Shown here: piece by piece, positions 8,123 through 53,948 of the stretch
How the letters are laid out: every line of letters starts with the position of its first letter
Position numbering within the stretch: position 1 is the stretch's first letter
Source: a virus
Direction: 5' to 3' (one strand)
IMG/VR virus record: IMGVR_UViG_3300034175_000022
Length of the DNA: 64,000 bases
Made by a program: the position numbers and the translations under genes
Notes under the pieces: model-generated
What the model was told of the DNA's origin: nothing
What the model saw: only the letters and a program-made list of their open reading frames with translations
Database searches by the model: none

Positions 8123-8548
8123 ATGGCAGACCGCGTGATCGTCATCAAGGATGTCTTCGAGGCAGGACAAAAGGTGCTCGCCAAGGTCGGCGGTGACCAC
8201 AGCGACCCGAACACAAGAGTCGATGGCACTGGCATCAACTGCAAGTACTTCGATCTCGAGCCCGACGAGCCCTGCCCGAGCTGCTTCCTCGGCTACGTCC
8301 TGGACGAGCTGAAGCTCAAGGACCAGATCGTGAGCCTGTACCTCAACAGCGAGCCGATCAGCGAGGTGGTCGCCGCCCTCGAGGGCGAGGGCATTACCTT
8401 CGATGCCGAGGTCAAGGCCTACCTGTACAAGGCGCAGGACTTCAACGACCGGGGCGCGCCCTGGCAGGTCGTCCACCAGGAGGCCTGCGAGGCAGCCAAC
8501 TACGTCTGGGACCGCGACAACGAGGGTCCGTCCTACCCCGACGAGTAG
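8123..8548 (+). CDS. Hypothetical protein
   Basis: SD AAGGAGAG. ORF track. Confidence 0.75.
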   Translation: MADRVIVIKDVFEAGQKVLAKVGGDHSDPNTRVDGTGINCKYFDLEPDEPCPSCFLGYVLDELKLKDQIVSLYLNSEPISEVVAALEGEGITFDAEVKAYLYKAQDFNDRGAPWQVVHQEACEAANYVWDRDNEGPSYPDE

Positions 8549-8585
8549 TGCCGCCCTGTATATCGACTCACCGTTCGGCTAGCAC

Positions 8586-8623
8586 TACCTGCCAGGTATG
8601 TGCTATACTGATCTCATCGCGCC
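8586..8623 (+). promoter_or_regulatory. Promoter with extended -10 (TGcTATACT) and ATCGCGCC start region; TACCT-gcc-AGGTA palindrome in the spacer
   Basis: -10 at 8604-8609, ATCGCGCC at 8616-8623 (same 6-nt gap as the 4887 and 6607 promoters), palindrome at 8586-8598. Confidence 0.55.
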
Positions 8624-8652
8624 ACACCCATCCCGTTTACCGGAGGCCAGTC

Positions 8653-9426
8653 ATGATCTGCACCAACGGCAACAAAGCACACTCGCACGCAACGGTCATC
8701 GAGTCCAAGATCTGCTACGGACTGCTGCCCGACCCGTCCCTCGCTGCCGCCCTCGTCGGGCACGCACCCGAGCCCGTCACGCCCCGTCAGCTCGCCTACA
8801 TCATCGACCTGGGCGGCAACGAGGCCTTCGCCAAGACGCTCACGAAGAAGTCGGCGTCCGCCGAGATCGACCGCCTCAAGAAGGAGCCGAAGATGGCCGT
8901 TGCTCGCTACGTCCACGCCGAGCCCACACCTGCCTACATGGTGCCGCCCGCACCCGAGCCGCGTGACAATCGGCTGGAGATGGTCGAGATGCTCATCGAC
9001 AGCGTGCGTGACGGTCACTACGCTGTGCAGCCCGACAGCCTGACGCCCTACACGTTCCTGCGGATCAGCCGCCCCAAGAAGGGCCGCTACGCGGGCACCG
9101 TGAAGTTCCAGACGCAGCACAGCGAGGCCTACCAGACGGTCGCCGCGATCTACCCGAGCGACAAGAGGATGCGCCTCTACGGTGGCCCGGTCGTGCTCGA
9201 TCGCATCCTGCAGGTGATCGCCAACTCCACCGAGGCGGCACGCGCCTACGCTAAGGAGCTCAATCACTGCTGTCGCTGCAACAAGGAGCTCACCGACGAG
9301 CGCAGCCGCCACTACGGCATCGGCCCCGAGTGCGAGAAGGTCTGGCCGGACATGCTCGGGTCAGTCGACCTCGAGAACAACGGGTTCACCTACGAGCAGC
9401 TCCGCGCAGCGGGCCTGCACGCCTGA
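8653..9426 (+). CDS. Protein with a C-terminal CxxC-x(11)-GIGPxC zinc motif (resembles DUF6011 from memory)
   Basis: ATG after CGGAGG. C-terminus CCRCNKELTDERSRHYGIGPECEK. Confidence 0.75.
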   Translation: MICTNGNKAHSHATVIESKICYGLLPDPSLAAALVGHAPEPVTPRQLAYIIDLGGNEAFAKTLTKKSASAEIDRLKKEPKMAVARYVHAEPTPAYMVPPAPEPRDNRLEMVEMLIDSVRDGHYAVQPDSLTPYTFLRISRPKKGRYAGTVKFQTQHSEAYQTVAAIYPSDKRMRLYGGPVVLDRILQVIANSTEAARAYAKELNHCCRCNKELTDERSRHYGIGPECEKVWPDMLGSVDLENNGFTYEQLRAAGLHA

Positions 9427-10642: not shown

Positions 10643-10670
10643 CCTACCCTCACCGAGGAGAGCACACAGT

Positions 10671-12248
10671 ATGCAAACAGTCAGCGGCTCGAACATGACC
10701 ATCGAGAAGAAGTCCTGCACCAGCTGCCCGTCCTACCTCCAGCGAGGGCCGGACGCGACGATGGCCTTTAAGAAGAATGTTGGCGCGCCCATGTGCGCCA
10801 AGTTCGGTCACGTCCTCGGGCGTGGCGGCGACAAGGCGAGCGCGCAGTCCGACAAGGCCATCGCCGAGGAGTTCGCCACCAACTGCAGCCAGTACGGCTA
10901 CACGCGCAGCATCGTCGACCTGCCGATGCCGAGTGTCGCGTTCCCCAATCCCGAGGTGCTGGTCAAGGGCAAGCCGGTCGGCACATCGAGGCTCGGAAGC
11001 TGCGCGATGTGCATCAACTTCATTCCCGAGAGCACCGTACACCGTGAGCTCGGCTGGAACGCTGGCATGTGCTCAGCCAAGGGTCGTCTGATCCTGGGCA
11101 ACAACCTGGCCACGGCGGCTCGAGGCTGCGAGTGGGCTGAGTTCGGGCCGCAGCGCAACAACACCTCGGGCATGACGCTGCTCCCCGCCTTCGACGAGAA
11201 CTTCGGTTCGTCGAAGTTCTCGCTGGCCAAGCAGTTCTTCGAGTCGAAGGCACACTTCGTGGAGCCGCATGAGTACCCGACCGACAAGGACGTGAGCGCC
11301 GAGGACGTTCTCGCTGGCATCCGGGCCTGGCGCAAGGTCACTGACCCCGAGGGTACCGGCAACTTCAGTTTCCTGCCGATCTTCGACCCCAACTACTTCG
11401 ACGAGATCGAGCGCAGCAAGATCCCGCGCAGCGGGGACGACGAGCACCCCGAGATGTACGTCGACCACTTCGGCGGCGTGTACCTCGCGGCGATCGTCTG
11501 GATGGAGCTCGACGAGACTCCCGCACTGTGGGGCGAGGCTGGCGTCGGAAAGACGGAGCTGTTCCGTCACCTCGCGTGGCTGATGTGCCTCCCCTTCGAG
11601 CGCATCTCGATCACCGCCACCACCGAGCTGGACGACCTCATCGGCAAGACGAAGTTCACGCCTGAGCGTGGCACGTTCTTCGAGTACGGTCGTCTGCCGA
11701 AGGCATGGAACAAGCCCTGCGTCGTAGTGCTGGACGAGCCGAACACCGGACAGCCCGAGGTCTGGCAGGTGCTGCGTCCCCTCACGGACAACAGCAAGCA
11801 GCTCGTGGTCGACACTAACGAGGGCGAGCGCATCACGCGCAACGAGTTCGCCTTCCCCGGCTTCGCCATGAATCCCGCCTGGGACCCAAAGAACGTTGGC
11901 ACTCACGAGATCGGTGACGCCGACGCATCGCGCCTGTTCCACGTCTACATCGGACTCCCGCCCGAGGAGCTCGAGCGGGAGATCATCAGCGCCCGCGTCA
12001 AGCTGGATGGCTGGGAGATCAGCCGTCAGCAGCTCGACATGGTGATGAGGGTCGCCACCGATGTTCGAGCCCTCGTCAAGCTCGGTACCCTGCCGATCAC
12101 CTGGGGCATCCGCCCGCAGATCAAGGCCGCTCGTGCGCTGCGCTGGTTCGATCCAGTCACCGCTTACAAGCGAGCCATCGGTGACTTCATGGAGCCCGAA
12201 GCACAAGAGGCTCTGCTCGACCAAGTCCGCGCTCACGCACCGTCCTGA
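10671..12248 (+). CDS. CobS/MoxR-like AAA+ ATPase with a ~190-aa N-terminal extension holding two Cys-rich modules
   Basis: Walker A GEAGVGKT, Walker B VVVLDEPN, general AAA_5/CobS-like layout. N-terminus has a duplicated CxxC...MC(A/S)K(F)G...C pattern. Confidence 0.88.
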   Translation: MQTVSGSNMTIEKKSCTSCPSYLQRGPDATMAFKKNVGAPMCAKFGHVLGRGGDKASAQSDKAIAEEFATNCSQYGYTRSIVDLPMPSVAFPNPEVLVKGKPVGTSRLGSCAMCINFIPESTVHRELGWNAGMCSAKGRLILGNNLATAARGCEWAEFGPQRNNTSGMTLLPAFDENFGSSKFSLAKQFFESKAHFVEPHEYPTDKDVSAEDVLAGIRAWRKVTDPEGTGNFSFLPIFDPNYFDEIERSKIPRSGDDEHPEMYVDHFGGVYLAAIVWMELDETPALWGEAGVGKTELFRHLAWLMCLPFERISITATTELDDLIGKTKFTPERGTFFEYGRLPKAWNKPCVVVLDEPNTGQPEVWQVLRPLTDNSKQLVVDTNEGERITRNEFAFPGFAMNPAWDPKNVGTHEIGDADASRLFHVYIGLPPEELEREIISARVKLDGWEISRQQLDMVMRVATDVRALVKLGTLPITWGIRPQIKAARALRWFDPVTAYKRAIGDFMEPEAQEALLDQVRAHAPS

Positions 12249-12262
12249 AGGGAGGTCAGACT

Positions 12263-14758
12263 ATGCCCGCAATCGTAGACGACACTGCACTCAAGGCTGC
12301 ACGCGCAGTCAAGACGTTCCGCTCGATGAACCCGACCCTGACCTCGTACGCCCGCGCCCTCTCGGGTCGCAAGGACGTGACCGTGGTGCTGGACGCTCGT
12401 AGCAACGGGGCGACGGACGGGACCAAGATCTTCTACTCCCCACCGATCAGCCTCGGCGACAACTCCCCGCACGAGTCGCGCAAGTGCAACCGTCGGGGCG
12501 AGAACAAGCAGCAGCAGTGCGCTGCGTGCGCGATCCGCGAGGAGGTGCTCGCGACGATCTACCACGAGATCGCGCACATCTGCTTCGAGTCCTTCGTTTC
12601 CAACAAGACCTGGATCGACAACAGGGACGAGGCCTTCGCGTTCATCAAGTCCACCGAGGGTGACTACGCGGACAAGATCTGGGAGCGCGTCCAGCAGAAC
12701 CGCTACTCGGTGACGACGTTCGTTCAGCTCGCGCACCTGGTCAACCCGTACATGGCCTTCCTGTGGAACGCACTGGAGGACGCCCGCGTCAACCAGGCAC
12801 TGTTCCGCGCCCGCAACGGTACGCGGGGCATGATGGAGGCCTCGGACATCAAGACCTTCACGCAGGGCGTGCAGCAGCAGGTCGACGCGGTCACCGGCGA
12901 GGCCAAGGTTCTCAAGTGGTCCGAGTACCCGCTCAACTCGCAGGTAATGGTTGGCCTGTACTGCATGGCCTGCGAGTACGATTTCACAGACTGGTTCGCA
13001 CCCGAGGTCGTCGCGGCACTGAACGACACAAAGCTGCGGATGCTGGTCAACCGGCTCGACAGCACCCGCACGGTCGAGGCCGTCTGGTCGCTAAGCTTCC
13101 CGGTCCTGGTACGGCTGCGGGAGCTGGGCTTCTGCCTGGACGAGCGCGACCCGCAGCCCGATCCGGAGCCGGAGCCGGAGCCCGAGGAGCAGGACGAGTC
13201 CGTGTTCGAGAACGACACATCCAAGTCTAACCCTCAGTCCGAGGGCGAGACTTCCGAGGACGACAGCGAGGAGTCAGGCGATGAGCAAGAGGGTACTGAC
13301 GGTGGGGAGGATTCGCCGGGAGTCGGGAGTGACTCTGGTGACGGAGACGAGCCTGGATGGGAACTGGAGGATGATGCACCTCCCGCAGAAGATGCAAGTC
13401 ACGGTGACGATGAGGATGCCTCACCCGACGACGGGGAAGCCGGTGACAGTGGCGGAGAGGGAGACGCTGCTGGTCCTGCCGGTGATGCGGGAAAGCCCGA
13501 TGGAGCAGGCGAAGCGGGCAAGTCTGTACCTGACGAGTCGGGTGATGAGGAAGACGGCGAGCCTACTGGTGGAGGCACTGACGCCCCCGCCGACGATCTC
13601 GAGTCTGACAGCGATCCTGACGGCGAAGATGCCGACGCTTCCGCCGATGCCGAGTGTGACAGTGAAGTCGGAGGCTCCGATTCTGCCGAAGAGACTGACG
13701 AAGCCTCCGACGACGAGTCCGAAGGCGAAGCCGACAAGGCAGTAACTGATCACGGCGAGTGGAAGAGCGCTGACTACGGCACCGTCGAGGAGAACCAGCA
13801 GGCACTCAAGTTCTGGGCCGGTCACGAGGAGCAGCACACTCATGACGATTCCGAGCACAGTGGCGAGACCGAGGCGATGAAGATCGCCATCCAGCAGGGG
13901 CACTACTTCGACACCAGCTCAGCGAACGTGCTGGGTGTCAACGAGGTTCGCTACAGCGATCCGCAGAGCGAGTACAGCGCATGGGTCGACTTCCAGGACC
14001 GAGGCAATACCGGCAAGCCGATCATCATCTCCGAGTCGATTCTCGGTCCGGCCCTTCAGCAGATGCGCGTTGCCTTCTCGGAGAACCAGCGCAGCAAGCA
14101 GGAGCGCAACCTCAAGTCCGGCAAGGTCCGGCCCGGGGTGCTGGGCAAGCGCGCACACTTCGGTGACGAGCGGCTCTTCCAGAAGAAGCACATCGCTGGC
14201 AAGCGCAACTACGCAGTCGAGATCGGGATGGACATCTCGGGATCGACGGCCGGGGAGAACATCGAGCTCATGCGTGAGGCCGTCACGGCTCAGGCTGAGC
14301 TGTGCAAGCGGATGGGCGTCGAGTTCTCCATCATGGCCCACTCCACGAAGGTCTCCCACGAGGACGGCATGATGATGGAGGTCTACCACATCAAGGAGGC
14401 GTTCGAGCCTTGGAGTGACTCGACCCGCCAGCGGCTGGCCGAGATCAACGCTCACAGCGGCAACCTAGACGGGCACGCGCTCGAGTACCTGCGCAAGAAG
14501 TGCGACAGGTCATCGGCTACTGACAAGATCATCCTGTACTACTCGGATGGTGCGATGCCTGCATCCAACCGCCGCGAGGAGCTCGAGATCCTCCAGCGCG
14601 AGATCGCTAACTGCAAGCGTCTCGGCTACACACTGCTCGGGGTGGGCATCAACACGTCCAGCCCCGAGAAGCACGGCTTGCCGACCGCCCGAGTGGACAG
14701 CCACGAGGACGTTAGCAAAGTCGTGAAGCACCTACAGAAGTTCCTGCTCGCCCGGTGA
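12263..14758 (+). CDS. CobT-like protein: N-terminal HExxH region, ~210-aa acidic disordered linker, C-terminal VWA domain
   Basis: SD GGGAGG. HEIAH and ALEDARVN motifs, D/E/G/S-rich stretch, MIDAS DISGST. Directly follows the AAA+ gene. Confidence 0.88.
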   Translation: MPAIVDDTALKAARAVKTFRSMNPTLTSYARALSGRKDVTVVLDARSNGATDGTKIFYSPPISLGDNSPHESRKCNRRGENKQQQCAACAIREEVLATIYHEIAHICFESFVSNKTWIDNRDEAFAFIKSTEGDYADKIWERVQQNRYSVTTFVQLAHLVNPYMAFLWNALEDARVNQALFRARNGTRGMMEASDIKTFTQGVQQQVDAVTGEAKVLKWSEYPLNSQVMVGLYCMACEYDFTDWFAPEVVAALNDTKLRMLVNRLDSTRTVEAVWSLSFPVLVRLRELGFCLDERDPQPDPEPEPEPEEQDESVFENDTSKSNPQSEGETSEDDSEESGDEQEGTDGGEDSPGVGSDSGDGDEPGWELEDDAPPAEDASHGDDEDASPDDGEAGDSGGEGDAAGPAGDAGKPDGAGEAGKSVPDESGDEEDGEPTGGGTDAPADDLESDSDPDGEDADASADAECDSEVGGSDSAEETDEASDDESEGEADKAVTDHGEWKSADYGTVEENQQALKFWAGHEEQHTHDDSEHSGETEAMKIAIQQGHYFDTSSANVLGVNEVRYSDPQSEYSAWVDFQDRGNTGKPIIISESILGPALQQMRVAFSENQRSKQERNLKSGKVRPGVLGKRAHFGDERLFQKKHIAGKRNYAVEIGMDISGSTAGENIELMREAVTAQAELCKRMGVEFSIMAHSTKVSHEDGMMMEVYHIKEAFEPWSDSTRQRLAEINAHSGNLDGHALEYLRKKCDRSSATDKIILYYSDGAMPASNRREELEILQREIANCKRLGYTLLGVGINTSSPEKHGLPTARVDSHEDVSKVVKHLQKFLLAR

Positions 14759-16639: not shown

Positions 16640-17095
16640 TTGCAGACATTCTTGCCATACCCCGACTACGCCGAGAGCGCCAAGGTTCTCGACATGTCCC
16701 GCCTCGGCAAGCAGCGCGTCGAGGTCATCCAGATCTTCAACGTGCTCCACGAGATCGACGGGGCACACCTCAAGCCGCACGGCAGGCACCCGGCGTGTCT
16801 CATGTGGAAGGGATACGAGATCCAGCTGGCCGAGTACGGCCTGACCATCTGCGAGGAGTGGATCGGTCGCGGCTACAAGGACACCTGCTTCGACAAGATC
16901 AGCTACCACCTCGAGATGGCGTCGTCCGGTGACTCGACCATGACGCCGCCGCCCTGGTTCGGCAATCCCGACTTTCACATCGCCCACCAGAGCAACCTGC
17001 TCCGCAAAGATCCCGACTACTACCGGCCCTTCTTCGGCGAGGAAGTTCCCGACGACCTGCCGTACATCTGGCCGACCCACTCGGGACTGATGTAG
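16640..17095 (+). CDS. Pyrimidine-dimer DNA glycosylase (T4 endoV / Pyr_excise)-like protein; function tentative
   Basis: TTG start after ACGGAGG. The pattern LD..RLGKQR.E..QI ... HP...MW.GY...L..YG...C.EW..RGY.D recalls bacterial Pyr_excise members. Confidence 0.6.
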   Translation: MQTFLPYPDYAESAKVLDMSRLGKQRVEVIQIFNVLHEIDGAHLKPHGRHPACLMWKGYEIQLAEYGLTICEEWIGRGYKDTCFDKISYHLEMASSGDSTMTPPPWFGNPDFHIAHQSNLLRKDPDYYRPFFGEEVPDDLPYIWPTHSGLM

Positions 17096-18596: not shown

Positions 18597-19221
18597 TCGT
18601 CTATTCCGAGCCGGTGCTCGTGAGAACAAGTACCGGCACAACCCCAACAGGATCACGCCAGCACGGTACGCCTGGGTGCGTAGCGTGCTGGGCACGTTCG
18701 TCATCATGCGTCACCCTGACTTGTCTGTCGTCGAAGGCGAAGAAGCTGAAGAGCTGGACGACGACGTGAAGGAGTACGACCCAGGCGATCCTGGCGAGAC
18801 GATCATCCTCACCCTTCCGATAAAGGGCCGAGGCCGTCCGCTTGCCTGGAACCTCAGTTCACTCACACACGCAGAGCTGGTAGCCATTCGCGAGTACTTC
18901 GACATCGCGTTCGAGCTGGCAGAGCCTGTGTGTATCGAAAGGGACAAGGCCGCCAATGAAGCATTCGACTCCGGTGACGACAGTGTCACTCGAATCTATC
19001 GAGCTCTTCCGGAGCTCATTGTACGAAACGGGGAGGTCGCAGAACACGGTGAAGGCCTACGGGTCGGATCTCAAGCAGTTTCTGCTCGACGTGTTCAATA
19101 CGAACCATCTCTCCGAGGGTTCTTGCGTTCTTCGGGACGCCTACGAGAGGACAGCGGCGCTGTGGCTGACCCAGACTCGCAACCGGACGAGCCCGAGGAC
19201 GACGGAGCGACGGCTGACTAG
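18589..19221 (+). CDS. Hypothetical protein whose last ~88 codons overlap the recombinase gene out of frame
   Basis: ATG overlaps the upstream stop. Past 18956 the frame has poor GC3 and no stop until 19221. Confidence 0.4.
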   Translation: MADRLFRAGARENKYRHNPNRITPARYAWVRSVLGTFVIMRHPDLSVVEGEEAEELDDDVKEYDPGDPGETIILTLPIKGRGRPLAWNLSSLTHAELVAIREYFDIAFELAEPVCIERDKAANEAFDSGDDSVTRIYRALPELIVRNGEVAEHGEGLRVGSQAVSARRVQYEPSLRGFLRSSGRLREDSGAVADPDSQPDEPEDDGATAD

Positions 19222-19810
19222 CCTCCGCGCCTTCGCTACCTGGGCTGAATGGGGAGCGATCCTCGAGGACTACAAGCTGCCTACCGCAGCCAAAGGGCGT
19301 CCTCACCCGATCCCCGAGGGTATGGCGGGCGTGCGTAAGCTAATCGAGCTCGCACGCAACGATCGACAGAAGGCACTCGTCGCATTCTGTGGCATGTGCG
19401 GGCTGCGCGTGGCTGAGGCTACTTCGGTCAAGCCTTCGCACATCGACCTGACCGAGATGCTCCTCACGGTTCGAGGCAAGGGCGACAAGACTCGGGTGAT
19501 CCCAATCAGCCCCGAGTGCTGGGAGATCATCCAGCAGGCAGTCGTGGTGGCCTTCGTCGAGGGCGACCGTTCAGTGGTGGGGATGCAGGAGCGGTTCGCT
19601 CGTCAGCTGATCACGAACCTAGGCAAGCGGGCGGGTCTACAGAGACCTATCGCGTCGCACGACCTTCGTGCTACGTTCGCCACGGCGGTGTACGATTCCA
19701 CGCGGGACCAGCGAGTCACGCAGGAACTTCTCGGTCACGCTTCGGGTGCGACTACCGAGCTTTATATCCAGGTGTCGATGAACAAGATGCGCGAGGCGGT
19801 GAAGCTGTGA
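18956..19810 (+). CDS. Tyrosine recombinase, XerC/D-like (284 aa; no arm-binding domain recognised)
   Basis: Core-binding-type N-terminus. Catalytic-region motifs GLRVAEA, HDLRATFAT, LLGHAS..TTELY. Confidence 0.9.
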   Translation: MKHSTPVTTVSLESIELFRSSLYETGRSQNTVKAYGSDLKQFLLDVFNTNHLSEGSCVLRDAYERTAALWLTQTRNRTSPRTTERRLTSLRAFATWAEWGAILEDYKLPTAAKGRPHPIPEGMAGVRKLIELARNDRQKALVAFCGMCGLRVAEATSVKPSHIDLTEMLLTVRGKGDKTRVIPISPECWEIIQQAVVVAFVEGDRSVVGMQERFARQLITNLGKRAGLQRPIASHDLRATFATAVYDSTRDQRVTQELLGHASGATTELYIQVSMNKMREAVKL

Positions 19811-45735: not shown

Positions 45736-46974
45736 CTAGATCGAACTCAGGCCGGATGAGTCGATCACAGTTACTGTCAGGTTCCAGGTGATGCCGGTCG
45801 GTAGCCAACTCACGGTGTAAGACATCTCACCGCTCTCGACTAGGCCGCTGTCAACGAGCGTCTCGCCGGTAGAGCTGTTCTTGATGACGACACTGTAGTA
45901 CTTCTGAACCCTACCATTGGAGGCCGTTACGGTCCAGCGAACAATCGGAGCACCCGTAGCAATCGTGCTGCCAGCTGTCGGAGAGGTGATCGCCACCACG
46001 GGTCGGTCTGAGACTCGGAACATGGTGTACGCAGACCAGGGGCCTGCGACATCGTCTGCGTCCCATACGCGAACGTGCCAACGAAGTAGCTCATCTTTCG
46101 GAAGGGATATCGGAACAACGTAAGAAGTTGCTGCCCCTCCGACCTTGCTCGTGTCGAGTACAAGAGTGACCTGTTCGTTCCGCTCGATCTGAAGCTGGTA
46201 AGCGCTCTGTGTATCCGTCTCGGATGGGTCATTGAAGATCCACGGAAGTGTGATGGTCGTGCCGGAAGGAATCGTAGCGCCAGACTGCTCCCCCTGGGGG
46301 ATCGCCATCGGCTGGTGGAAGACAACGAAGATCGAAGTCTCGGTCCAGGGAGAAGTCTGAACGCCATAGTAGGCCCGAGCCCGAACATACCAGTTGCCCT
46401 GCGGTACGACGCTCTCAGCCTTGTGTGTCACGATGCCCGAGATGACATTCTCGTCAAGCGTGCTAGTGAAGGTCTTTGACTCCACGGTGAACGCTGCGTC
46501 TCGAGCAAACTGCCACTGAATCCCGGTCTTGCGCTGGTCACTGGCGGCGACCACGAGACCCGAAAGGAGTGGAGTCGAACTTGAGACGACAGCGTTGTTC
46601 GAGGGGATGATCTCGGTCGGCGTCTCAATGCCAGGCAGGATCACCATGAAGTTCACCGTAGCGCTGTAAGCGCTGGCAGCGTTCGTCGTGTCGATCGAGC
46701 GGGCACGCATGTACCAGGTTCCGTTGTCCAACGGAGTAGCACTCGGAAGGAGCTGCCTGGCCTGCCCTGACGGTCGTGCGTCGATCAGCGACTCGGTGAC
46801 CGTGATGAGGTTGGTCGTGAAGGCGGAATCCTTCGCGAGCTGCCACTGCGCCCGCACCCAGTTACCATCCGAGTCAGGTCCGAGCGTGGCCGTGATAGTC
46901 GGAGTCGCAGTATTGACTCCGACTCCGAACTCTCCGTTCGGTCCCAGCGAGGTAGGGACCGGCGGGTTAGCCAT
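45736..46974 (-). CDS. Minor tail protein made of four FN3-like repeats
   Basis: A recurring ...W.(V/M)RARA....SPW(S/T)... module about every 100 aa. Confidence 0.7.
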   Translation of the reverse strand: MANPPVPTSLGPNGEFGVGVNTATPTITATLGPDSDGNWVRAQWQLAKDSAFTTNLITVTESLIDARPSGQARQLLPSATPLDNGTWYMRARSIDTTNAASAYSATVNFMVILPGIETPTEIIPSNNAVVSSSTPLLSGLVVAASDQRKTGIQWQFARDAAFTVESKTFTSTLDENVISGIVTHKAESVVPQGNWYVRARAYYGVQTSPWTETSIFVVFHQPMAIPQGEQSGATIPSGTTITLPWIFNDPSETDTQSAYQLQIERNEQVTLVLDTSKVGGAATSYVVPISLPKDELLRWHVRVWDADDVAGPWSAYTMFRVSDRPVVAITSPTAGSTIATGAPIVRWTVTASNGRVQKYYSVVIKNSSTGETLVDSGLVESGEMSYTVSWLPTGITWNLTVTVIDSSGLSSI

Positions 46975-49900
46975 TACGTCACGGCCAGTGCGGTGAGGTT
47001 ACGCAGGAACTCGTTGGCGTCGTCGCCGTTCTTGATGTTCGGCAGGCTGATGTCTCCGTGGAAGTGCAGGGTCACGTTGTTCGGTGCGGCTGGCGTGGTA
47101 ACCTCGGCAGTGGTGACGTTCACCCATGCGCGCTCGACCGTGATGGTGGCCGATGCCATGCGCTGCGTGCCCGCCACGCCATTCTGCCCCATGCGACCCA
47201 CACCCGTGATGACATCCTTCAAGATTCCCCATTGCGCGGGATTGAAGACCGCCTCGGGCTGACCTGTACGGTTCACGGTCTGCGTGACACCGGGCTGGAG
47301 CCACCCGCCCTGGTCGTAAGCCCAGTGAACGTGGTCGTAGTGGTCGGCCTTTACCGCGCCTGAGTAGACGTGCGGTGAACCGTTGTGAATCTGGCGACCG
47401 CCCGCCGGGCTGAAGATGAGCTCCTTCGAGGTCTTGCCGAAGTTGCGGAGAATCCAGTCGAAGTACTCCATGCGGGGCGGGATGTCGACTGCCCGTCCGA
47501 GCGCGTGGTAGGACTGGTTGCCCGAGGATGTGATCGAGCCGGGACGGAAGCCGCTGTTCATCGAGATGCCGGGGAACTCGGCCCGAAGGATAGCCATCTG
47601 GCGCGTGAAGCCCATGCCGCCGAGCTCTCGGTCACCGGCCTGCGTCTCGCCGTTCTGGACGAAGCTGACCAGGTTGTCCTTGACCTGCCGCAGGAAGCCA
47701 GCTCCGACTCGACCAACGATGTTGCCACCGAGGTTGCGGTCGGCCATGTCCACGAGCGGCACCATGAGCTTGTTCATGGCGGACCCGAGACCATCGCGCA
47801 TCCAGTTGGTGACATCGCCTGCAAGGTTGCCGACACCTTCGAAGGCACCCTTGAACCTGTCCACGAGACCGTTGCCGTCACCGATGCCTGCGTTACGAGC
47901 GACCGGCTCCTTGTAGCCACTGGCGACCCGACCGCGCTCCGCGTTCCGGTTAAGGTTCTCGAGTCCCCGTGCGCCACCGATAGCCCTGACGGCCTCGGGG
48001 ACGAGGACACCCTCACCCGAGCGTGCCCCGATGACCATGTTGTCGTGCTTGCTGTGACCGCCAGGGACGATGCCGCCTCGCTTGAACGTAGGCAGGTCAC
48101 CCATCTCGAAGTTCAGCTTTGAGGTGATACGGTTGATGTTCTTGATGCCGTTAGTGTTGATCCAGTTGGCCGCGCCGTTCCAGGCTCCCTTGGTCGCGTT
48201 GGCAACGCTGGAGCCGATGTTCGAGAGGGCACTCGCCACGCGGTCGGGCAGCTCACGGACCCAGGACATGAAGCCGCCCTTGCCGTCCACGATGTTCGAC
48301 GCCTTGGTCTTGAGTGCATTGAAGGCGTCCTCAGCTGCGTCGGCGATCTTCGCCCCCATGCCGTTCTTGCCGGTGATCTGGGCAACAATGCGACCGGGGA
48401 GGAGTGCGAGCCAATCCTTAAATCCACTCCATCCATTACCGAAGGCATCCTCGAGCTCGCCCCAGGCAGACTTGGCGATGTCCTTGATCTTGGCAGAAAC
48501 ACCGGACTTGCCAGACAGGTTGTCCCAAATCCGCTGACCGAGTGCCTGCAGCCAGGCGACAGTAGTGACCCATCCCGCGGCCCAGGCATCCTCGAGAGCG
48601 TTCCATGCGCTGACGGCAACATCCTTGATCTTCGCGAGGATACCCGTCTTGCCGGACAAGTTGTCCCACACGCGCTGACCGATGCCCTGGAGCCAGAGAA
48701 CGGTCGCGGCCCACCCGGTACCCCATGCAGACTCTAGTGCGTCCCAGGCAGTCGTAGCGACGTTCTTGATCTTCTCCAGAATGCCAGCCTTGCCGGACAG
48801 GTTGTCCCACACGCGCTGACCGATACCCTGCAGCCACAGGACGGTGCCAGCCCAGCCCTTCGCCCATGCGGCTTCCAGCATGTCCCAGGCCTGGGTGGCG
48901 ATGTTGCCGACGCGCTCCTTGAGGGCGACGAGGGCGTCCCACACCTTCTGCGGGCGACCGCCCAGCCAGGTGTTGAGTGCTGTCCAGCCGATAGACCAGG
49001 CCGACTCTAGTGCATCCCAGGCGGCGGTTGCGATGTTGCCGAGGCGCTCCCGAAGGTTCCCGAGCGCGTTCCAGGCCTTCTGTGGCAGGCTCGTGAGCCA
49101 GGTGAGGATGACGGTCCAGCCCGCAACCTGGCTGTTGTAGAACCAGGTGAAAGCCGTGGTCGCAACGTCAACGAGCTTGTCCTTCAGGCCCTTGAGTGCA
49201 TTCCATGCGTCACCCGGCAGGTCTGAGACGAAGTCGATAACCTTCTTGTTGCCGCGAACCACACGATCGGAGAACCAGTCCCATGCAGTCTGTGCTGCAC
49301 TGGAAACCTTGTCCTTGAGGCTGCCGAGCGCCTTGGCAACGTCGCCCGGCAGGTCCTTCATGAAGTCGATGACACCGTCCACGAAGGACTTGATGGCACC
49401 CTTGACCTTACCCCACAGGCCCTTGAACCAGGCCACGATCCCGTCGATGAGGTCGGGGATAATGCTGTGGCCGATGATGACATCGTAGAGCCACTTGAAC
49501 CAGTCAACAACTCCATTGACAAGACCCTTTACGAGTCCGACAACGAGCCAGAATCCGTCCTTGAGGATGTTCCCAATACCCTTGACGAGACCGAGGAAGA
49601 TGTTCTTTGCTGCCTCGCCAATCTCCGAACCGTCGCGGTTGAAGATACCAAGGATTAGTCTGATTGTCTCGCGTACCGTGATGACGACTACCTTCATCAC
49701 GTCGATAACGATGTCGAGTGCCGGGCCGAGTGTGCCAGCCAGAACACTGCTCACGATCTTGAATGCACCTACGAGGACGCCGCCGACGATCGCAGCCAGA
49801 ATCTTGACGCCCGACCACAGCATGCCGAGTACGTCCATGAGCGGCGCACCGAGCTCACTGAACTTCGCAAGCTCGGGTCCGATCTCCTTCCAGACCCGCT

Positions 49901-52900
49901 TCCCCGCGCCGACGACTGCGTCGATGATCTTCTTGATGTCGGGCGCGAACATGGCGAAGATGGGCTTGAGTGCATCGAACGCATCCTGAGCGAAGCCAAC
50001 AAAGCTGTTCCAGGCATTGATAACGAAGTCAGGCATCTTGAAGGAACCGAACAGGCCCGAGCCGCCCCTGAAGTAACCCTTGACCTTGTCGACGATCGGC
50101 GAGATGTAGGTGTCGACCTTGCCCTGAATCCAGGTCCAGGTCTTGTTCCACATGTCGCGGATCGGCGCGAACATATCGAACTCAGCAAACTTCTTGCCGA
50201 GGTCATCCGCGTACGACTTCGTGAGTGCGTCGATCTCTGCTGACTGGTCGCCAGCCTTACCCTCGCGACCGATCTTCGCGTTGCCGCCTACCTCGGGGAA
50301 GTTGCCACCCGCGGCGTCCTTGAAGTTCTGAGCACCAGGAGTGAGGTAAGGGTCCTTTGCCTTCTTGGCCTCCTTCGCTCGCTTCGCCTTGTCCTTGATG
50401 TCGATCTCGATGCCACCAGCGCTACCGAGCTGACGAAGGGCGTTCTCGAGCTCGCGCACAGTGTCGGTCGTGTCACTGTACGCCTTCTGAAGGATGTCGA
50501 GCTTCTCGACCTCCTTGTCGTACTGTCCGCTAACCCTGTCGCGGGTTCCAGTGGCAGCGTCAACGACTGCCTTCTGCTGCTCGACAGCCTTGTTGGCTGC
50601 GTCGATCTGCGGAGTGAGCGCAGCCATCGCGCTCTTCTCCTTGTTGATCCCGTTGACGATCTCCTGGAACGACAGCTCCTTCATGCCGTTCGCCAGCTCG
50701 TCGATCTGGCGCAGGAGGGGATCGAAGTCGATGCTGAACTTGAGGTCGAGGGCCTGCCCCTCGGTCTCCAGCTTTGCGAGCTCTTCCTTCATCTTGTCGA
50801 CGGGCGAGGCGTCTGCAGTCTTAGCGATCGCCTTGTACTGCTTCTGCATCGCGTCGATCTGCCCGCTGATCGGCCCGAGGATGTCCGAACCGGCACCGGC
50901 CATGCGGAGGTCGCTGCGCTGCCCACTCAGGGTCTCGATGCTCCCCTGGAGCTTTGCCATCTTGTCGCGCAGACCGTCGACGGTACCGTTAGCCTGCTCC
51001 CAGTTCAGGATACCCAGGCGCAGCTTCTTCTGCGCCATGTCGTTCTTGAAGATCTGATCCTGCATCGCCTTCATGCCCTTGATGGGCGCACTGGCGAAGT
51101 CGGTCAGCCTTGACTGGTGGGCATCGTAGGCACCGTTGAGCTTCTCGAGCTTCTTTTCCAGCCCGTCGAGCTTGAACTGCTGCGCGTCCAGGGCCTTGTT
51201 GGCGGCATCGAGCTTCGTCTTCCAGCCGGAGACGACACCCTCCTGGCGCTTGACTGCAGACTCCTGTGACGCAAGGACGGTGTTCATGCCCTTGAGGTCA
51301 GTAATCATCCGGTCGAACAAGGCGAGCTGTGCAGGGATGCCCTTGGCGACGTTAGAACGCTCCTCGCTGAAGCCGCCACCGACGAGCGAGGACGCGATCC
51401 GCTTGAAGGCTGCCAGGTCTGCCGCTGCCCGCCCGAAGACGCCACCGACATTGGAGACGGATGCGTAGGACTTCTTGACCGCCTCCATACCCGAGGCGAC
51501 ACTCTCCACCAGCGAGGGGCTGTGGTGTGCCCAAGGGTTCAGGTACGAGAACAGCTCGTAGACCTGCATAGCTGCGGATCGCACAATCTCCACGACAGTG
51601 AGGAGTGCGTCACGCACGCCAGCGGGCATGCGCCAGAAGGCATCCGTGACGTAGTCGACTGCCGTGTTGAAGAAGTTGACGAGGGGGTTGAACGCTCGCG
51701 CTGCACCCTCTGCGACGACACCCATGTCCTCGGTGACCCCGCGCCAGACATCCGCGATCTGCTTGCGGAAAGCGTACGCGACACCAAGTGCAGCCGCAAC
51801 CGCAAGGCCGATCCAGCTCGTCATTCCAGCGACGAGGATGCGCCCACCCATGAGCATCCCGGCCCACAGCTTCGGGCCGAGAAGCAGGAGGGCGGCGGGA
51901 AGCGCACGGAACGCCACGAGGATGCGACCAGGCACTGCAAGCAGCAGGAGGGCGGCTCGACCGCCTGCTGCGTACATGGCCGTCATCACGCCGATCATCG
52001 TTCGCTGTGCGGCGAGGATACCGGCCCAGATTGTGGTGAGTGCTCCACCGGCTGCACCCGTGATGGTGACCATGCCCCAAGACGCTGCAGCCCAGGCGGC
52101 AGTAAGTCCAGCGCTTCCTGCGGCGATGGCTGCCTGGATGCCGAGAATCATTCCCGTCCAGGCCATCCGCATTGCAACGCTGAAGTAGCCGAAGGCGCGG
52201 TAGAGCGCGTCAGTCATGAAGCGCCACCCGGCCATGACCACAGCGCTACCGGCTGCGACCACCGCCCCAATGCCTGCCATGAGCGCTGCCCACATAGCCA
52301 TCATGGAAGCACCAAAGGCTGCGGTGATGACCCTCAAGTTCATCAGCATCATCGACCAGATGCCTGCGAGCTGGACTCGAGCGACTGCGATGATCGGAGC
52401 CAGGCCAGCCATGATGACCGTGCGCAGCATGCCCATGAGGTTGCGGAAGCCGCCGACAAGGGCGCTTCCGCCCGCAGCCGCAGCGCCGCCGAGCTTGCCA
52501 AGGAGCCCGGCGATAGCGCCAAGGCCAGCATAGAGGGCCTGGAAAGGCGCTCCGACGATCATCAAGATCTTCTTGCCCAGCAAACCGGCCTGTACTCCGG
52601 CCCACGCGAAGCCCATGCCCATCATGCCGACAAGCGTGGCTACCGATCCGATGTAGCGCGCCAGGGGACCGATGGCGGCGAGCAGGACCAGCGCAGTGAG
52701 CGCCAGCTTCTGCATCTCGGGACTCAGCTCCTGGAAGCGCTGAACAAGGGCGCGAACTCCGTTGGCGAGTGCGATCATGTAGGGGATCAGGGGGATGATG
52801 ACATCGGCAGCAGTGTTCTGGATGATCGTCCAGACCTGCTTGAGCTTCTGCGGGCTCGAACTCAGGACCGCGTTCAGCTCTTCGGTACGCTGTGCGAAGT

Positions 52901-53948
52901 TGTCGGAAGCCGTCGCACTGCTGTCGAGCGCCTTGCGGTAGTACCCGTTCGTGTTTATCATGTCACGCATGAGAACGTCGAACTTGTTGATCTGCCAGCG
53001 GCTGGCGACGACGGACGAGACGACAGCCTTCTGTGCGTCATCGAGGTTGTTGAACGACTTTGCCATCGCCTCGAGCCGCTGCGAGCCGTTCAGGCTCTGC
53101 CAGCCGAGCTCCTTGACGTTGATCCCCATCTGACCCATGACCTGTGCGGCCTCGCGGGTGGGGGCGAGCAGTCGAGAAACGATCGTCTTGATCGCGTTGC
53201 CAGCCTGGGCCGCAGTACCGGCAGCGGGCGACATGGCCGCGATCATCGCAGCGAGGTGCTCCACGTCGATGCCAGCGGATCGCGCCACACCGGCTGCTCG
53301 CGCGAAGCCCTCGACGAGTCCGCCCAGGGACACGCCTGTCTGGTTCTCCACCATGTTGAGCACGTCGATGGTAGCCGACAGCTCTTCGACCGTCTGGCCG
53401 TACTGCGCCTGGATTGCGATCAGCGACTCAGTAGCCTTGACGGCCTCGAGCTCACCGAGAACCATCGTCTCCATCGTGAGCTTCGTGCTCTTGGCGAGCG
53501 CGACACCCGAGGCACCGGCTGCTGCCCAGTCGGCTGCGATGTTGATCGTGGCAGCCTGGTTGACGCCGAAGGTATCTGACAGGACTCGGAACGATCGGCC
53601 GAGTGCGTCAGTCTCGCTCTTGACCTGCTCGGCAGACATCGAAGTGTCGCCGTACACCTTCGATACGCGCACCATCGCCTTCTCGTTATCGAGGGCGAAC
53701 TTGGTGGCGGCTGCACCGGCCAGGACGATCGGGAGCGTGAAGTTGTACTGAAGCTGGCGACCGGCCCACTGGACCTGGTTTCCCCACTTGCTGATCCCCG
53801 CGATGCCGCCGCCACCGAAGCCATTGGCCCGTGCGTTCGCAGAAGAAGTCTGTCGCTCCAGCTCGGCCATCTCGCGCTTGAGCTGACGAATCTCCTTAGC
53901 GGCAGAAGCAGTAGCAACTCGCACCATGATGTTCATAAGCGCGTTCAC
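46974..53948 (-). CDS. Tape measure protein (2324 aa)
   Basis: Size, position after the G/T chaperones, TM-rich central part, coiled coils, internal repeats, embedded peptidase motif. Confidence 0.93.
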   Translation of the reverse strand: MNALMNIMVRVATASAAKEIRQLKREMAELERQTSSANARANGFGGGGIAGISKWGNQVQWAGRQLQYNFTLPIVLAGAAATKFALDNEKAMVRVSKVYGDTSMSAEQVKSETDALGRSFRVLSDTFGVNQAATINIAADWAAAGASGVALAKSTKLTMETMVLGELEAVKATESLIAIQAQYGQTVEELSATIDVLNMVENQTGVSLGGLVEGFARAAGVARSAGIDVEHLAAMIAAMSPAAGTAAQAGNAIKTIVSRLLAPTREAAQVMGQMGINVKELGWQSLNGSQRLEAMAKSFNNLDDAQKAVVSSVVASRWQINKFDVLMRDMINTNGYYRKALDSSATASDNFAQRTEELNAVLSSSPQKLKQVWTIIQNTAADVIIPLIPYMIALANGVRALVQRFQELSPEMQKLALTALVLLAAIGPLARYIGSVATLVGMMGMGFAWAGVQAGLLGKKILMIVGAPFQALYAGLGAIAGLLGKLGGAAAAGGSALVGGFRNLMGMLRTVIMAGLAPIIAVARVQLAGIWSMMLMNLRVITAAFGASMMAMWAALMAGIGAVVAAGSAVVMAGWRFMTDALYRAFGYFSVAMRMAWTGMILGIQAAIAAGSAGLTAAWAAASWGMVTITGAAGGALTTIWAGILAAQRTMIGVMTAMYAAGGRAALLLLAVPGRILVAFRALPAALLLLGPKLWAGMLMGGRILVAGMTSWIGLAVAAALGVAYAFRKQIADVWRGVTEDMGVVAEGAARAFNPLVNFFNTAVDYVTDAFWRMPAGVRDALLTVVEIVRSAAMQVYELFSYLNPWAHHSPSLVESVASGMEAVKKSYASVSNVGGVFGRAAADLAAFKRIASSLVGGGFSEERSNVAKGIPAQLALFDRMITDLKGMNTVLASQESAVKRQEGVVSGWKTKLDAANKALDAQQFKLDGLEKKLEKLNGAYDAHQSRLTDFASAPIKGMKAMQDQIFKNDMAQKKLRLGILNWEQANGTVDGLRDKMAKLQGSIETLSGQRSDLRMAGAGSDILGPISGQIDAMQKQYKAIAKTADASPVDKMKEELAKLETEGQALDLKFSIDFDPLLRQIDELANGMKELSFQEIVNGINKEKSAMAALTPQIDAANKAVEQQKAVVDAATGTRDRVSGQYDKEVEKLDILQKAYSDTTDTVRELENALRQLGSAGGIEIDIKDKAKRAKEAKKAKDPYLTPGAQNFKDAAGGNFPEVGGNAKIGREGKAGDQSAEIDALTKSYADDLGKKFAEFDMFAPIRDMWNKTWTWIQGKVDTYISPIVDKVKGYFRGGSGLFGSFKMPDFVINAWNSFVGFAQDAFDALKPIFAMFAPDIKKIIDAVVGAGKRVWKEIGPELAKFSELGAPLMDVLGMLWSGVKILAAIVGGVLVGAFKIVSSVLAGTLGPALDIVIDVMKVVVITVRETIRLILGIFNRDGSEIGEAAKNIFLGLVKGIGNILKDGFWLVVGLVKGLVNGVVDWFKWLYDVIIGHSIIPDLIDGIVAWFKGLWGKVKGAIKSFVDGVIDFMKDLPGDVAKALGSLKDKVSSAAQTAWDWFSDRVVRGNKKVIDFVSDLPGDAWNALKGLKDKLVDVATTAFTWFYNSQVAGWTVILTWLTSLPQKAWNALGNLRERLGNIATAAWDALESAWSIGWTALNTWLGGRPQKVWDALVALKERVGNIATQAWDMLEAAWAKGWAGTVLWLQGIGQRVWDNLSGKAGILEKIKNVATTAWDALESAWGTGWAATVLWLQGIGQRVWDNLSGKTGILAKIKDVAVSAWNALEDAWAAGWVTTVAWLQALGQRIWDNLSGKSGVSAKIKDIAKSAWGELEDAFGNGWSGFKDWLALLPGRIVAQITGKNGMGAKIADAAEDAFNALKTKASNIVDGKGGFMSWVRELPDRVASALSNIGSSVANATKGAWNGAANWINTNGIKNINRITSKLNFEMGDLPTFKRGGIVPGGHSKHDNMVIGARSGEGVLVPEAVRAIGGARGLENLNRNAERGRVASGYKEPVARNAGIGDGNGLVDRFKGAFEGVGNLAGDVTNWMRDGLGSAMNKLMVPLVDMADRNLGGNIVGRVGAGFLRQVKDNLVSFVQNGETQAGDRELGGMGFTRQMAILRAEFPGISMNSGFRPGSITSSGNQSYHALGRAVDIPPRMEYFDWILRNFGKTSKELIFSPAGGRQIHNGSPHVYSGAVKADHYDHVHWAYDQGGWLQPGVTQTVNRTGQPEAVFNPAQWGILKDVITGVGRMGQNGVAGTQRMASATITVERAWVNVTTAEVTTPAAPNNVTLHFHGDISLPNIKNGDDANEFLRNLTALAVT
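48290..49310 (-). repeat. About 8 tandem 126-nt (42-aa) repeats inside the tape measure gene (approximate bounds)
   Basis: The unit AW(D/N)ALE(S/D)AW..GW...V.WLQ..GQR(V/I)WDNLSGK.G...KIK recurs. Near-identical DNA sits at about 48650-48710 and 48780-48840. Confidence 0.8.

Follow-up and report, generated by a model that had tools for sequence, protein, structure and literature searches.

What does a pair of genes resembling the cobS and cobT genes of cobaltochelatase do for a virus that carries it? Few "auxiliary metabolic genes" of tailed viruses are as widespread as such pairs. Cyanophages have them among their core genes, and they recur in haloarchaeal viruses and pelagiphages, in phage-plasmid-like replicons of Enterobacteriaceae and Yersinia pestis, and in over 100 actinophages; the viruses that carry them lack cobN, and the role of the pairs has long been puzzling. 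The question is raised by the window analyzed here, a 64,000-nucleotide stretch of DNA from IMG/VR virus record IMGVR_UViG_3300034175_000022. Two open reading frames (ORFs) were confirmed on its + strand, gene 1 (10671-12248, 525 amino acids), which encodes a MoxR/CobS-class AAA+ ATPase with an N-terminal extension, and gene 2 (12263-14758, 831 amino acids), which encodes a protein of CobT architecture with a C-terminal VWA domain. A preliminary description of this DNA had noticed both genes, along with Walker A and B motifs, HEIAH, ALEDARVN and DISGST, and all of these were found as it had said. We show here that the N-terminal domain of the gene 2 product has a motif arrangement characteristic of gluzincins, that the HExxH part of this arrangement is invariant in its family, and that it is missing from every housekeeping CobT in our sample. 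[quoted passage not shown]

The evidence lies chiefly in the N-domain of gene 2 (residues 1 to ~295; 12263-13147, + strand, as are all features of the two genes given below). Its AlphaFold2 model (predicted local distance difference test, pLDDT, 91.7; predicted template modelling score 0.88) consists of helix α1, a small β-sheet and then a helical bundle. HEIAH (H101, E102 and H105; residues 101-105; 12563-12577) is placed on the helix of residues 87-107, the first to follow the β-sheet, and the motif is retained in 120 of 120 homologs. A second motif, ALEDARVN (residues 170-177; 12770-12793), is located on a later helix (residues 164-183) and contains E172, a candidate third metal ligand that is kept in 119 of the 120 homologs, while N169, D173 and R175 are kept in all of them. 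An HExxH on one helix with a downstream glutamate on a later one, here at a spacing of 67 residues that includes a family-specific insert, is what defines a gluzincin at the level of motifs, and the domain thus appears to carry the complete signature. A further cluster, H70-x4-C75-x10-C86-x2-C89 (hereafter HCCC; 12470-12529), was found in the β3-α2 loop, just upstream of the HExxH helix; it is a putative structural zinc site that adds to the features listed in the preliminary description. Its residues are conserved in 119-120 of the 120 homologs and are invariant in divergent phage genera, and no counterpart is present in the other viral CobT-like or canonical CobT proteins sampled. The metal-site residues as a whole (HExxH, E172/D173/R175 and HCCC) are also kept in five phage genera whose proteins are only 31-37% identical.

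Is this domain related to that of CobT? Sequence methods do not reach the cellular protein. A profile of the N-domain compared by hhalign with a single canonical CobT_N gave a probability of 1.2%, and the comparison with the single N-domain of Pseudomonas phage hairong was not significant either. Pfam returned nothing significant for the N-domain of the window protein or of 31 homologs, PF06213 (CobT) appearing in only one of the 31 at E=0.13, and a search of the profile against PDB sequences yielded noise only (GCM, DEPDC5, antibodies). An exhaustive HMMER profile search of 1.84 billion (1.84e9) representatives delimited a family of 490 proteins, 416 of them at E≤1e-30 and almost all 700-1100 residues long; this search never arrived at canonical CobT and found no bridge to other families. 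Because sequence methods fail, homology with CobT is argued here from predicted structure and from the collinearity of motifs. When the N-domain model was compared by Foldseek with BFVD, a collection of viral predicted structures, its own family came first (E ~1e-13), followed by 16 consecutive viral CobT/VWFA proteins of 570-810 residues at probabilities of 0.95-1.0. The matches include proteins of haloarchaeal viruses and a 355-residue protein of HHTV-2, which Liu et al. (2021, PMC8651126) identify as the N-part of CobT, split off as a protein of its own. In a multiple alignment the motifs are collinear: the actinophage family reads YHEIAH…NALEDARVN…G, most other viral CobT-like proteins read DHEVAH…N(I/L)(V/L)ED..IE…G..RNL, the hairong type reads DSEISK…NPLESFFCE, and canonical CobT reads GD–SMA…FDAVEQARVE…G..GNL. 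The earlier assessment of ALEDARVN as CobT-like is borne out by this alignment, in which it corresponds to canonical FDAVEQARVE. On these grounds the N-domain is probably of the viral CobT_N type, with a modelled topology like that published for CobT_N. Since the N-domain of canonical CobT has itself been described as M48C-like in a recent preprint on the CobSTN complex (bioRxiv 10.64898/2026.07.21.739949), a zincin-like N-domain belongs to the standard anatomy of CobT, and is not the special acquisition that it had at first been taken for.

What does set the viral proteins apart is the HExxH motif itself. Our viral comparison sample comprised 25 loci found with an alignment to CobT_C, from which 19 full-length proteins from outside the actinophage family could be scored; 17 of these 19 have HExxH at the homologous position, together with a long acidic linker. 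The housekeeping sample comprised 80 bacterial cobT loci, of which 46 were parsed; these are alphaproteobacterial CobT proteins of 62-92% identity, mostly from Hyphomicrobiales, and the sample is therefore phylogenetically narrow. None of the 46 has HExxH, the position reading RGLGDSMALR (GDSMA) instead, and as a result the N-domain of cellular CobT looks like an inactivated zincin. The motif had been singled out beforehand as an unusual decoration of this protein. That holds against housekeeping CobT and does not hold against other viral CobT-like proteins, in which HExxH is usual and has previously been published. The split is thus between sampled housekeeping proteins that uniformly lack the zincin signature and viral versions, the actinophage family included, that for the most part keep it. 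The CobT of the hairong type (locus L002, Pseudomonas phage hairong; plasmid matches H88-H156) has the degenerate sequence DSEISK in place of HExxH. Proteins of this type are also encoded on more than 1000 plasmids of ~105-115 kb, 884 of them non-mobilizable, in Klebsiella, E. coli, Acinetobacter, Salmonella, Yersinia pestis and other hosts, a pattern which suggests that these plasmids are phage-plasmid-like replicons.

Beyond the N-domain, gene 2 appears to follow the tripartite plan of CobT throughout, with a disordered acidic linker and then a shaft and a VWA domain with a complete MIDAS. The protein matches phrog_5298 ("cobalamin biosynthesis protein") over its full length at 3e-160. Pfam CobT_C (PF11775) is detected marginally, at 22 bits (gathering threshold 21; 1.5e-4) with the whole protein and at 26.2 bits (7.4e-6) with the domain alone; the single gene 2 sequence found no match among PDB sequences. 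The region from 13898 to 14755 aligns with canonical CobT_C including the shaft, a segment preceding the VWA domain that inserts into the CobS ring (bioRxiv 10.64898/2026.07.21.739949), and it shares with canonical CobT the DxSxS, NxDG, SDG and shaft-like motifs. The MIDAS is made up of DISGST (residues 657-662, with D657, S659 and S661; 14231-14248), N734-L-D736-G (14462-14473) and S-D762-G (14543-14551). D657, S659, S661, N734, D736 and D762 are each present in 120 of the 120 homologs. In a database comparison, protein P0121 was listed at 100% identity to the gene 2 product, and the identical protein is found on assembled contigs of ~80 kb.

The linker between the two folded parts (residues ~296-545; 13148-13897) is of low complexity. 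Depending on where its ends are placed (residues ~279 or 295 to 538 or 545), the acidic stretch covers ~240-260 residues, somewhat more than the ~210 first estimated, with 36% aspartate and glutamate, 3% lysine and arginine, and a net charge of about -80. We regard such a linker as ordinary: to judge from composition it is common to cellular CobT and other viral CobT-like proteins, the canonical linker being disordered and ~90 residues long (bioRxiv 10.64898/2026.07.21.739949), or 107-186 residues when the acidic span is measured by our own metric. Within the family its length ranges from 63 residues (in Amore2) to 480, and tblastn leaves it unaligned to relatives. We therefore rejected it as a conserved functional mimic, since neither length nor sequence is constrained, and the view of it as an "acidic-mimic" decoration falls with this. 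In one CobT-like ORF of 901 residues (L016, IMGVR_UViG_3300048850_000064), a non-acidic insert (…ILAITPKLDPGVYDVEVVTDAGRGVLPAAFTFV…) follows the HExxH N-domain at a point where other members have the acidic linker alone; it looks like a β-domain of the Ig/IPT type.

The ATPase encoded by gene 1 belongs with CobS in its core. It matches phrog_5424 ("ATPase") over its full length at 2e-174 and Pfam AAA_5 at E=5.6e-14, and the nearest solved relatives in a PDB sequence search are midasin AAA modules, CbbQ, CobS 9ujv and NorQ, with 9ujv matching residues 254-478 at 4e-6. From about residue 215 to its end the protein is collinear with the whole of Sinorhizobium CobS, with which it has in common Walker A and B, the arginines of the Arg finger and of sensor 2, and the helix-2 and pre-sensor-1 hairpin regions. 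The core and lid (11466-12245) contain Walker A, GEAGVGKT (residues 288-295; 11532-11555), Walker B, VVVLDEPN (residues 351-358, with D355-E356; 11721-11744), a family motif, RPLTDNSKQL (11775-11804), the Arg finger in DADASR (11916-11933) and sensor 2 in GIRPQ (12105-12119). The Walker residues are kept in ~100% of 120 homologs and most residues of RPLTDNSKQL likewise (~93-100%), and the Arg-finger and sensor-2 arginines are conserved in an eight-sequence alignment. Every catalytic AAA+ motif thus appears to be in place on a CobS-collinear core. The protein is nevertheless not a CobS equivalog. TIGR01650, the equivalog model, scores only 20.5 bits (E=2.2e-4, residues 287-400 only) where the cutoff is 558.55, and the 525-residue length compares with a canonical median of 331. 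This, and the lack of a Pfam match to the N-domain of gene 2, agree with the initial view that the pair is not orthologous to the housekeeping chelatase. The best database match to gene 1, P0001 on a 22.6-kb ENA contig, differs from it by one residue, N93 versus T (codon 93, 10947-10949). A homolog in IMGVR_UViG_3300021603_000010 (L120, 4941-7619) is an ORF of 893 residues with an insertion of ~330 residues exactly inside Walker A. The junctions read GAAGTGK/GHPV…LLAALLDCDGS…IVTHN/TEFF, so that the insertion ends in HN and the Walker A threonine follows; its appearance is that of an intein bearing a LAGLIDADG-type motif, and blastp splits the match to this homolog into gene 1 residues 15-294 and 294-525.

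The part of gene 1 that has no equivalent in CobS is its N-terminal extension, which by our measurement is ~215 residues long where ~190 had been given. Canonical CobS proteins from 44 genomes have a median length of 331 residues, with Walker A at position 72 and no cysteine before it, in good agreement with the ~330 residues and absence of a Cys module given in the preliminary description. The duplicated cysteine pattern reported there is real and conserved, in the form of two Cys4 modules: C16-x2-C19-x22-C42-x29-C72 (10716-10886), conserved at 91-99% in the 120 metagenomic homologs, and C111-x2-C114-x19-C134-x18-C153 (11001-11129), conserved at 100%. The x17-GxxMC spacing attributed to it is approximate, copy 1 reading GAPMC and copy 2 AGMC. 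For all eight cysteines the sole exceptions to conservation are alignment gaps, and all eight are invariant across five divergent genera of cultured phages. When the profiles of the two modules are compared by hhalign, the CxxC…C patterns fall in register (E=2.3e-4, 35 columns, probability 44%), which lends modest support to the idea that they arose by duplication. The AlphaFold2 model of the N-terminal region has a pLDDT of 79, with module 2 at ~90 and module 1 at moderate confidence. No PDB entry was matched at E<1 by Foldseek with the model of residues 1-265, and Pfam gave no significant match to the isolated extension. Between the modules and the core lies a conserved, β-rich connector (residues ~200-265, GIRAWRKVTDP…LPIFDP…IPRSGDDEHPEMYVD; 11268-11465), which is modelled with a pLDDT of 91-96 and whose C-terminal part aligns with the N-terminus of canonical (Sinorhizobium) CobS. 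Paired CxxC modules are also absent from the other viral CobS-like proteins sampled, and the double Cys4 module on the ATPase appears to be specific to this actinophage family, as do the HCCC insert and the S-then-T gene order. The Cys-module ATPase seems to be co-inherited with its HCCC-HExxH partner: both are present in eight of nine IMG/VR loci, the ninth being truncated. A different zinc-finger-like motif (KCEICGEETHAIAKHLKDAH) is found at the N-terminus of the CobS of Pseudomonas phage hairong (L002 6910-8157, 415 residues), and in other viral CobS-like proteins the N-terminal extension is poor in cysteine and ~80-125 residues long, judged by a Walker A at position 150-197 as against 72 in canonical CobS. 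Taken over the whole pair, then, the suspicion that all of its unusual features might be standard in housekeeping CobS/CobT is correct for the linker and the zincin-like domain, and incorrect for HExxH and the Cys4 modules.

How might such a pair work? The cryo-electron microscopy structures of CobSTN (bioRxiv 10.64898/2026.07.21.739949) offer the closest analogy. On this model, and on the general one for MoxR-vWA couples, gene 1 would form a hexameric ring, the pre-VWA shaft of gene 2 would insert into the pore of that ring, the N-domain would dock on the ATPase lid, and the MIDAS face and the N-domain would jointly clamp a third, client protein. The family-specific zinc modules, two Cys4 and one HCCC, may supply recognition of a target or partner. 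For MoxR-vWA couples in general, capture of a peptide by the MIDAS followed by an ATP-driven conformational change has been proposed (Kaur et al. 2020). CobN is what the cellular enzyme clamps, and its domain V is contacted by the β3-α2 loop of CobT_N (bioRxiv 10.64898/2026.07.21.739949); it is this CobN-contacting loop that bears the HCCC insert in the actinophage family. Cellular CobT, moreover, works without HExxH, yet the family holds the motif invariant. For both reasons we doubt that CobN is the client, and we therefore favor a protease or remodeller.

Several observations weigh against a protease or remodeller and need to be set beside this. The N-domain model has no PDB match at E<1 by Foldseek, in a copy of the database that evidently lacks the CobT_N crystal structure of the preprint, and an M48 protein in BFVD is matched only at E=0.78, which is not significant. 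The modelled domain is assigned to the zincins from its motif order and its topology, together with what the preprint says of canonical CobT_N. An invariant HExxH could bind metal without proteolysis. Conservation of the CobT-type shaft and MIDAS is equally compatible with a real chelatase role. Finally, the pair is retained in phages of many hosts, which fits a generic client better than a defence protein confined to one lineage.

Three other explanations were considered, and we take them in falling order of likelihood. A genuine cobaltochelatase motor, in which the phage CobS/CobT-like pair docks on host CobN and raises cobalamin synthesis during infection, strikes us as unlikely. In Mycobacteriales, which have cobN, ChlI/ChlD-type partners are believed to take the place of CobST. 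In favor of such a motor, CobN exists in mycobacteria, the C-terminal half of gene 2 is a CobT_C homolog with a shaft segment and a complete MIDAS, gene 1 is collinear with CobS, the genes stand in the same S-then-T order as in Sinorhizobium, and the HExxH site could in principle bind Co2+. Liu et al. (2021, PMC8651126) have put forward this very role for viral cobST clusters, which are widespread among the tailed viruses. These points have to be reconciled with an ATPase that scores far under the CobS equivalog cutoff, with an N-domain that is not detectably CobT_N by sequence in any of the comparisons above, and with the replacement of the CobN-contacting loop by the HCCC insert. In addition, none of the early-arm ORFs of the window was seen to encode CobN, a B12-dependent enzyme or the product of another cob gene. 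Since housekeeping CobT works without HExxH, a chelatase leaves an invariant HExxH and three extra zinc modules unexplained.

The genomic setting bears on the next explanation. Gene 1 is preceded by a strong Shine-Dalgarno site, GAGGAG (10655-10660), 10 nucleotides before its ATG at 10671; gene 2 begins 14 nucleotides after gene 1, its own, likewise strong site, AGGGAGG (12249-12255), directly following the gene 1 stop codon. Neither a promoter-like nor a + strand terminator-like site was found between the two genes, and we therefore predict that they form an operon inside a long + strand early transcription unit. The + strand early arm of the window is ~34 kb long, and the operon lies ~10 kb into it, amid small ORFs and upstream of genes for an SNF2-type helicase, a clamp-like protein, an exonuclease and thymidylate synthase; the structural arm is on the - strand, at least 20 kb away. 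Were the pair a chaperone of virion assembly, the ATPase, of MoxR type, would act with the VWA protein as its co-chaperone to help assemble and proteolytically process structural proteins, for example those of a very long tail. This has been proposed for the MoxR and metallopeptidase-vWA pairs of phages, jumbo phages in particular (Iyer et al. 2021, PMC7824862), and in ATV the MoxR protein p618 binds both the VWA protein p892 and tail proteins. In addition, the structural arm of the window contains a 2324-residue ORF (46974-53948, - strand) of the size of a tape-measure gene, and relatives with the same AAA+/CobT-like pair have 500-nm tails and tape-measure protein genes of 9 kb. This correlation, however, is phylogenetic and not independent evidence, and an operon that sits in the early arm, on the strand opposite to the structural genes, in the window as in all relatives examined, is hard to square with assembly, an explanation that we place below the chelatase and think rather improbable.

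The early-arm position is equally what makes plausible the host-takeover machine that the preliminary description had in mind; that role can only be inferred. Its further suggestion of an anti-defence role found nothing specific in its favor. PADLOC, which applies models of defence systems, returned no match, and the immediate neighbors are uninformative, being small ORFs without matching domains and without a conserved third component of the kind found in MoxR-vWA ternary conflict systems (VMAP, iSTAND or FtsH types; Kaur et al. 2020). A dedicated anti-defence device, in which the acidic linker would mimic nucleic acid or serve as a decoy for it and the ATPase and VWA protein would neutralize a host immune protein, could appeal to the position in the early arm, to the linker charge of about -80 and to the service of MoxR-vWA couples in bacterial conflict systems (Kaur et al. 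2020), but it is the least probable of the explanations considered, given that acidic disordered linkers are generic to cellular and viral CobT-like proteins, that the linker varies freely in length and sequence, that PADLOC found no match, and that the pair occurs in phages of many unrelated hosts.

The distribution of the pair is indeed broad. By tblastn it is present in ~116 cultured phages of Gordonia, Tsukamurella and Rhodococcus, where the two proteins are annotated as "AAA-ATPase" and "CobT-like cobalamin biosynthesis protein", and it is represented in addition by hundreds of metagenomic proteins. The genes are syntenic in at least five genera, with 0-4 small ORFs between them. A megablast search with the locus gave only 17% coverage at ~72% identity; at the level of DNA, then, no cultured phage is closely related to that of the window. 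The sole published comment that we found on the pair in these phages concerns Katyusha and Benczkowski14, which are said to "encode a CobT-like protein". With full-length membership in PHROG families as well, the pair is not peculiar to the phage of the window.

Other features of the window may be mentioned briefly. Between 10.6 and 14.8 kb there are numerous antisense ORFs, which we rejected as genes because they are typical of DNA of 63% GC and have no support. Two genes upstream of the pair, the ORF at 8548-9426 (+ strand) encodes a DUF6011 (PF19474) protein with a Cys-rich C-terminal motif (…HCCRCNKELTDERSRHYGIGPECEK…) and matches phrog_6032, a family of unknown function. Just downstream of the pair, a 151-residue ORF (16640-17095, + strand) encodes a protein with a Pyr_excise domain (PF03013), the domain of pyrimidine-dimer glycosylases like T4 endonuclease V. 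Further along the early arm, a tyrosine-recombinase-like ORF of 284 residues (18956-19810, + strand; phrog_1 integrase, 4e-34; PF00589) could be an integrase remnant or an Xer-like resolvase, in a phage that had been called "lytic-type".

If a metalloprotease or remodeller is the right answer for the actinophage family, it may not be the right answer for that family alone. A bolder idea, possible in our view but doubtful, is that viral "CobT" proteins as a class are active AAA+-gated metalloproteases, that cellular CobT is a pseudo-protease relative which lost HExxH, and that the actinophage family is a specialized version with its three added zinc modules for client recognition. Were this so, the widespread cobS and cobT "auxiliary metabolic genes" of phages would not be B12 genes at all; they would encode a generic, ATP-driven machine for processing host proteins. 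The contrast in HExxH between viral and cellular proteins turns the choice between a chelatase and a protease or remodeller into a simple mutational question. Several of the hosts of this family can be grown in culture, Gordonia terrae 3612 among them, and the extra zinc modules of the family offer further handles for finding a client protein.

It remains to compare the pair with known systems. With the CobS and CobT of cobaltochelatase (EC 6.6.1.2; PF11775/PF06213, TIGR01650) it shares adjacent genes in S-then-T order, a CobS-collinear AAA_5 ATPase, and an adaptor made up of an N-domain with helix α1, β-sheet and helical bundle, a disordered acidic linker, a shaft-like segment and a VWA MIDAS, together with the E-[DQ]-A-R-V motif. 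It differs in the ~215-residue extension with two Cys4 modules on the ATPase, in the presence of HExxH (where canonical CobT has GDSMA) and HCCC on the adaptor, in a linker of ~250 rather than ~90 residues, in the want of any cobN or B12 context in view, and in a score far below the CobS equivalog cutoff.

The likeness to the cobST or MoxR and metallopeptidase-vWA pairs of other viruses (PMC8651126, PMC7824862) is closer. Genes 1 and 2 form the same two-gene AAA+/VWA cluster that is described in tailed viruses, with an ATPase gene adjacent to an HExxH-VWA gene, the N-terminal HExxH at the homologous position, a long acidic linker, and structural similarity of the N-domains (Foldseek 0.95-1.0). 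In contrast to our observations with the actinophage family, the other viral pairs are arranged T-then-S, their CobS proteins are 400-435 residues long, have Walker A at 150-197 and are without paired CxxC modules, their N-domains lack the HCCC insert and show no sequence similarity to the actinophage N-domain that HMMER can detect, and the hairong type, on phage-plasmid-like replicons, has lost HExxH.

With M48-type gluzincins the N-domain shares an HExxH on the first helix after a small β-sheet and an invariant glutamate on a later helix, and it differs in having no significant sequence or Foldseek match to any peptidase and in the 67-residue spacing with its family-specific insert. ATV p618/p892 and the cellular couples RavA-ViaA, CbbQ-CbbO and NorQ-NorD likewise pair a MoxR-clade AAA+ protein with a client-delivering VWA-MIDAS partner; their VWA partners, however, have no peptidase-like N-domain, and ATV p618 is a virion component whereas the phage pair is encoded in the early arm. 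Phage MoxR and metallopeptidase-vWA pairs have thus been described before, and the idea behind them is already known (Iyer et al. 2021, PMC7824862); what is distinctive here is the contrast in HExxH with cellular CobT, the double Cys4 module and the HCCC site.

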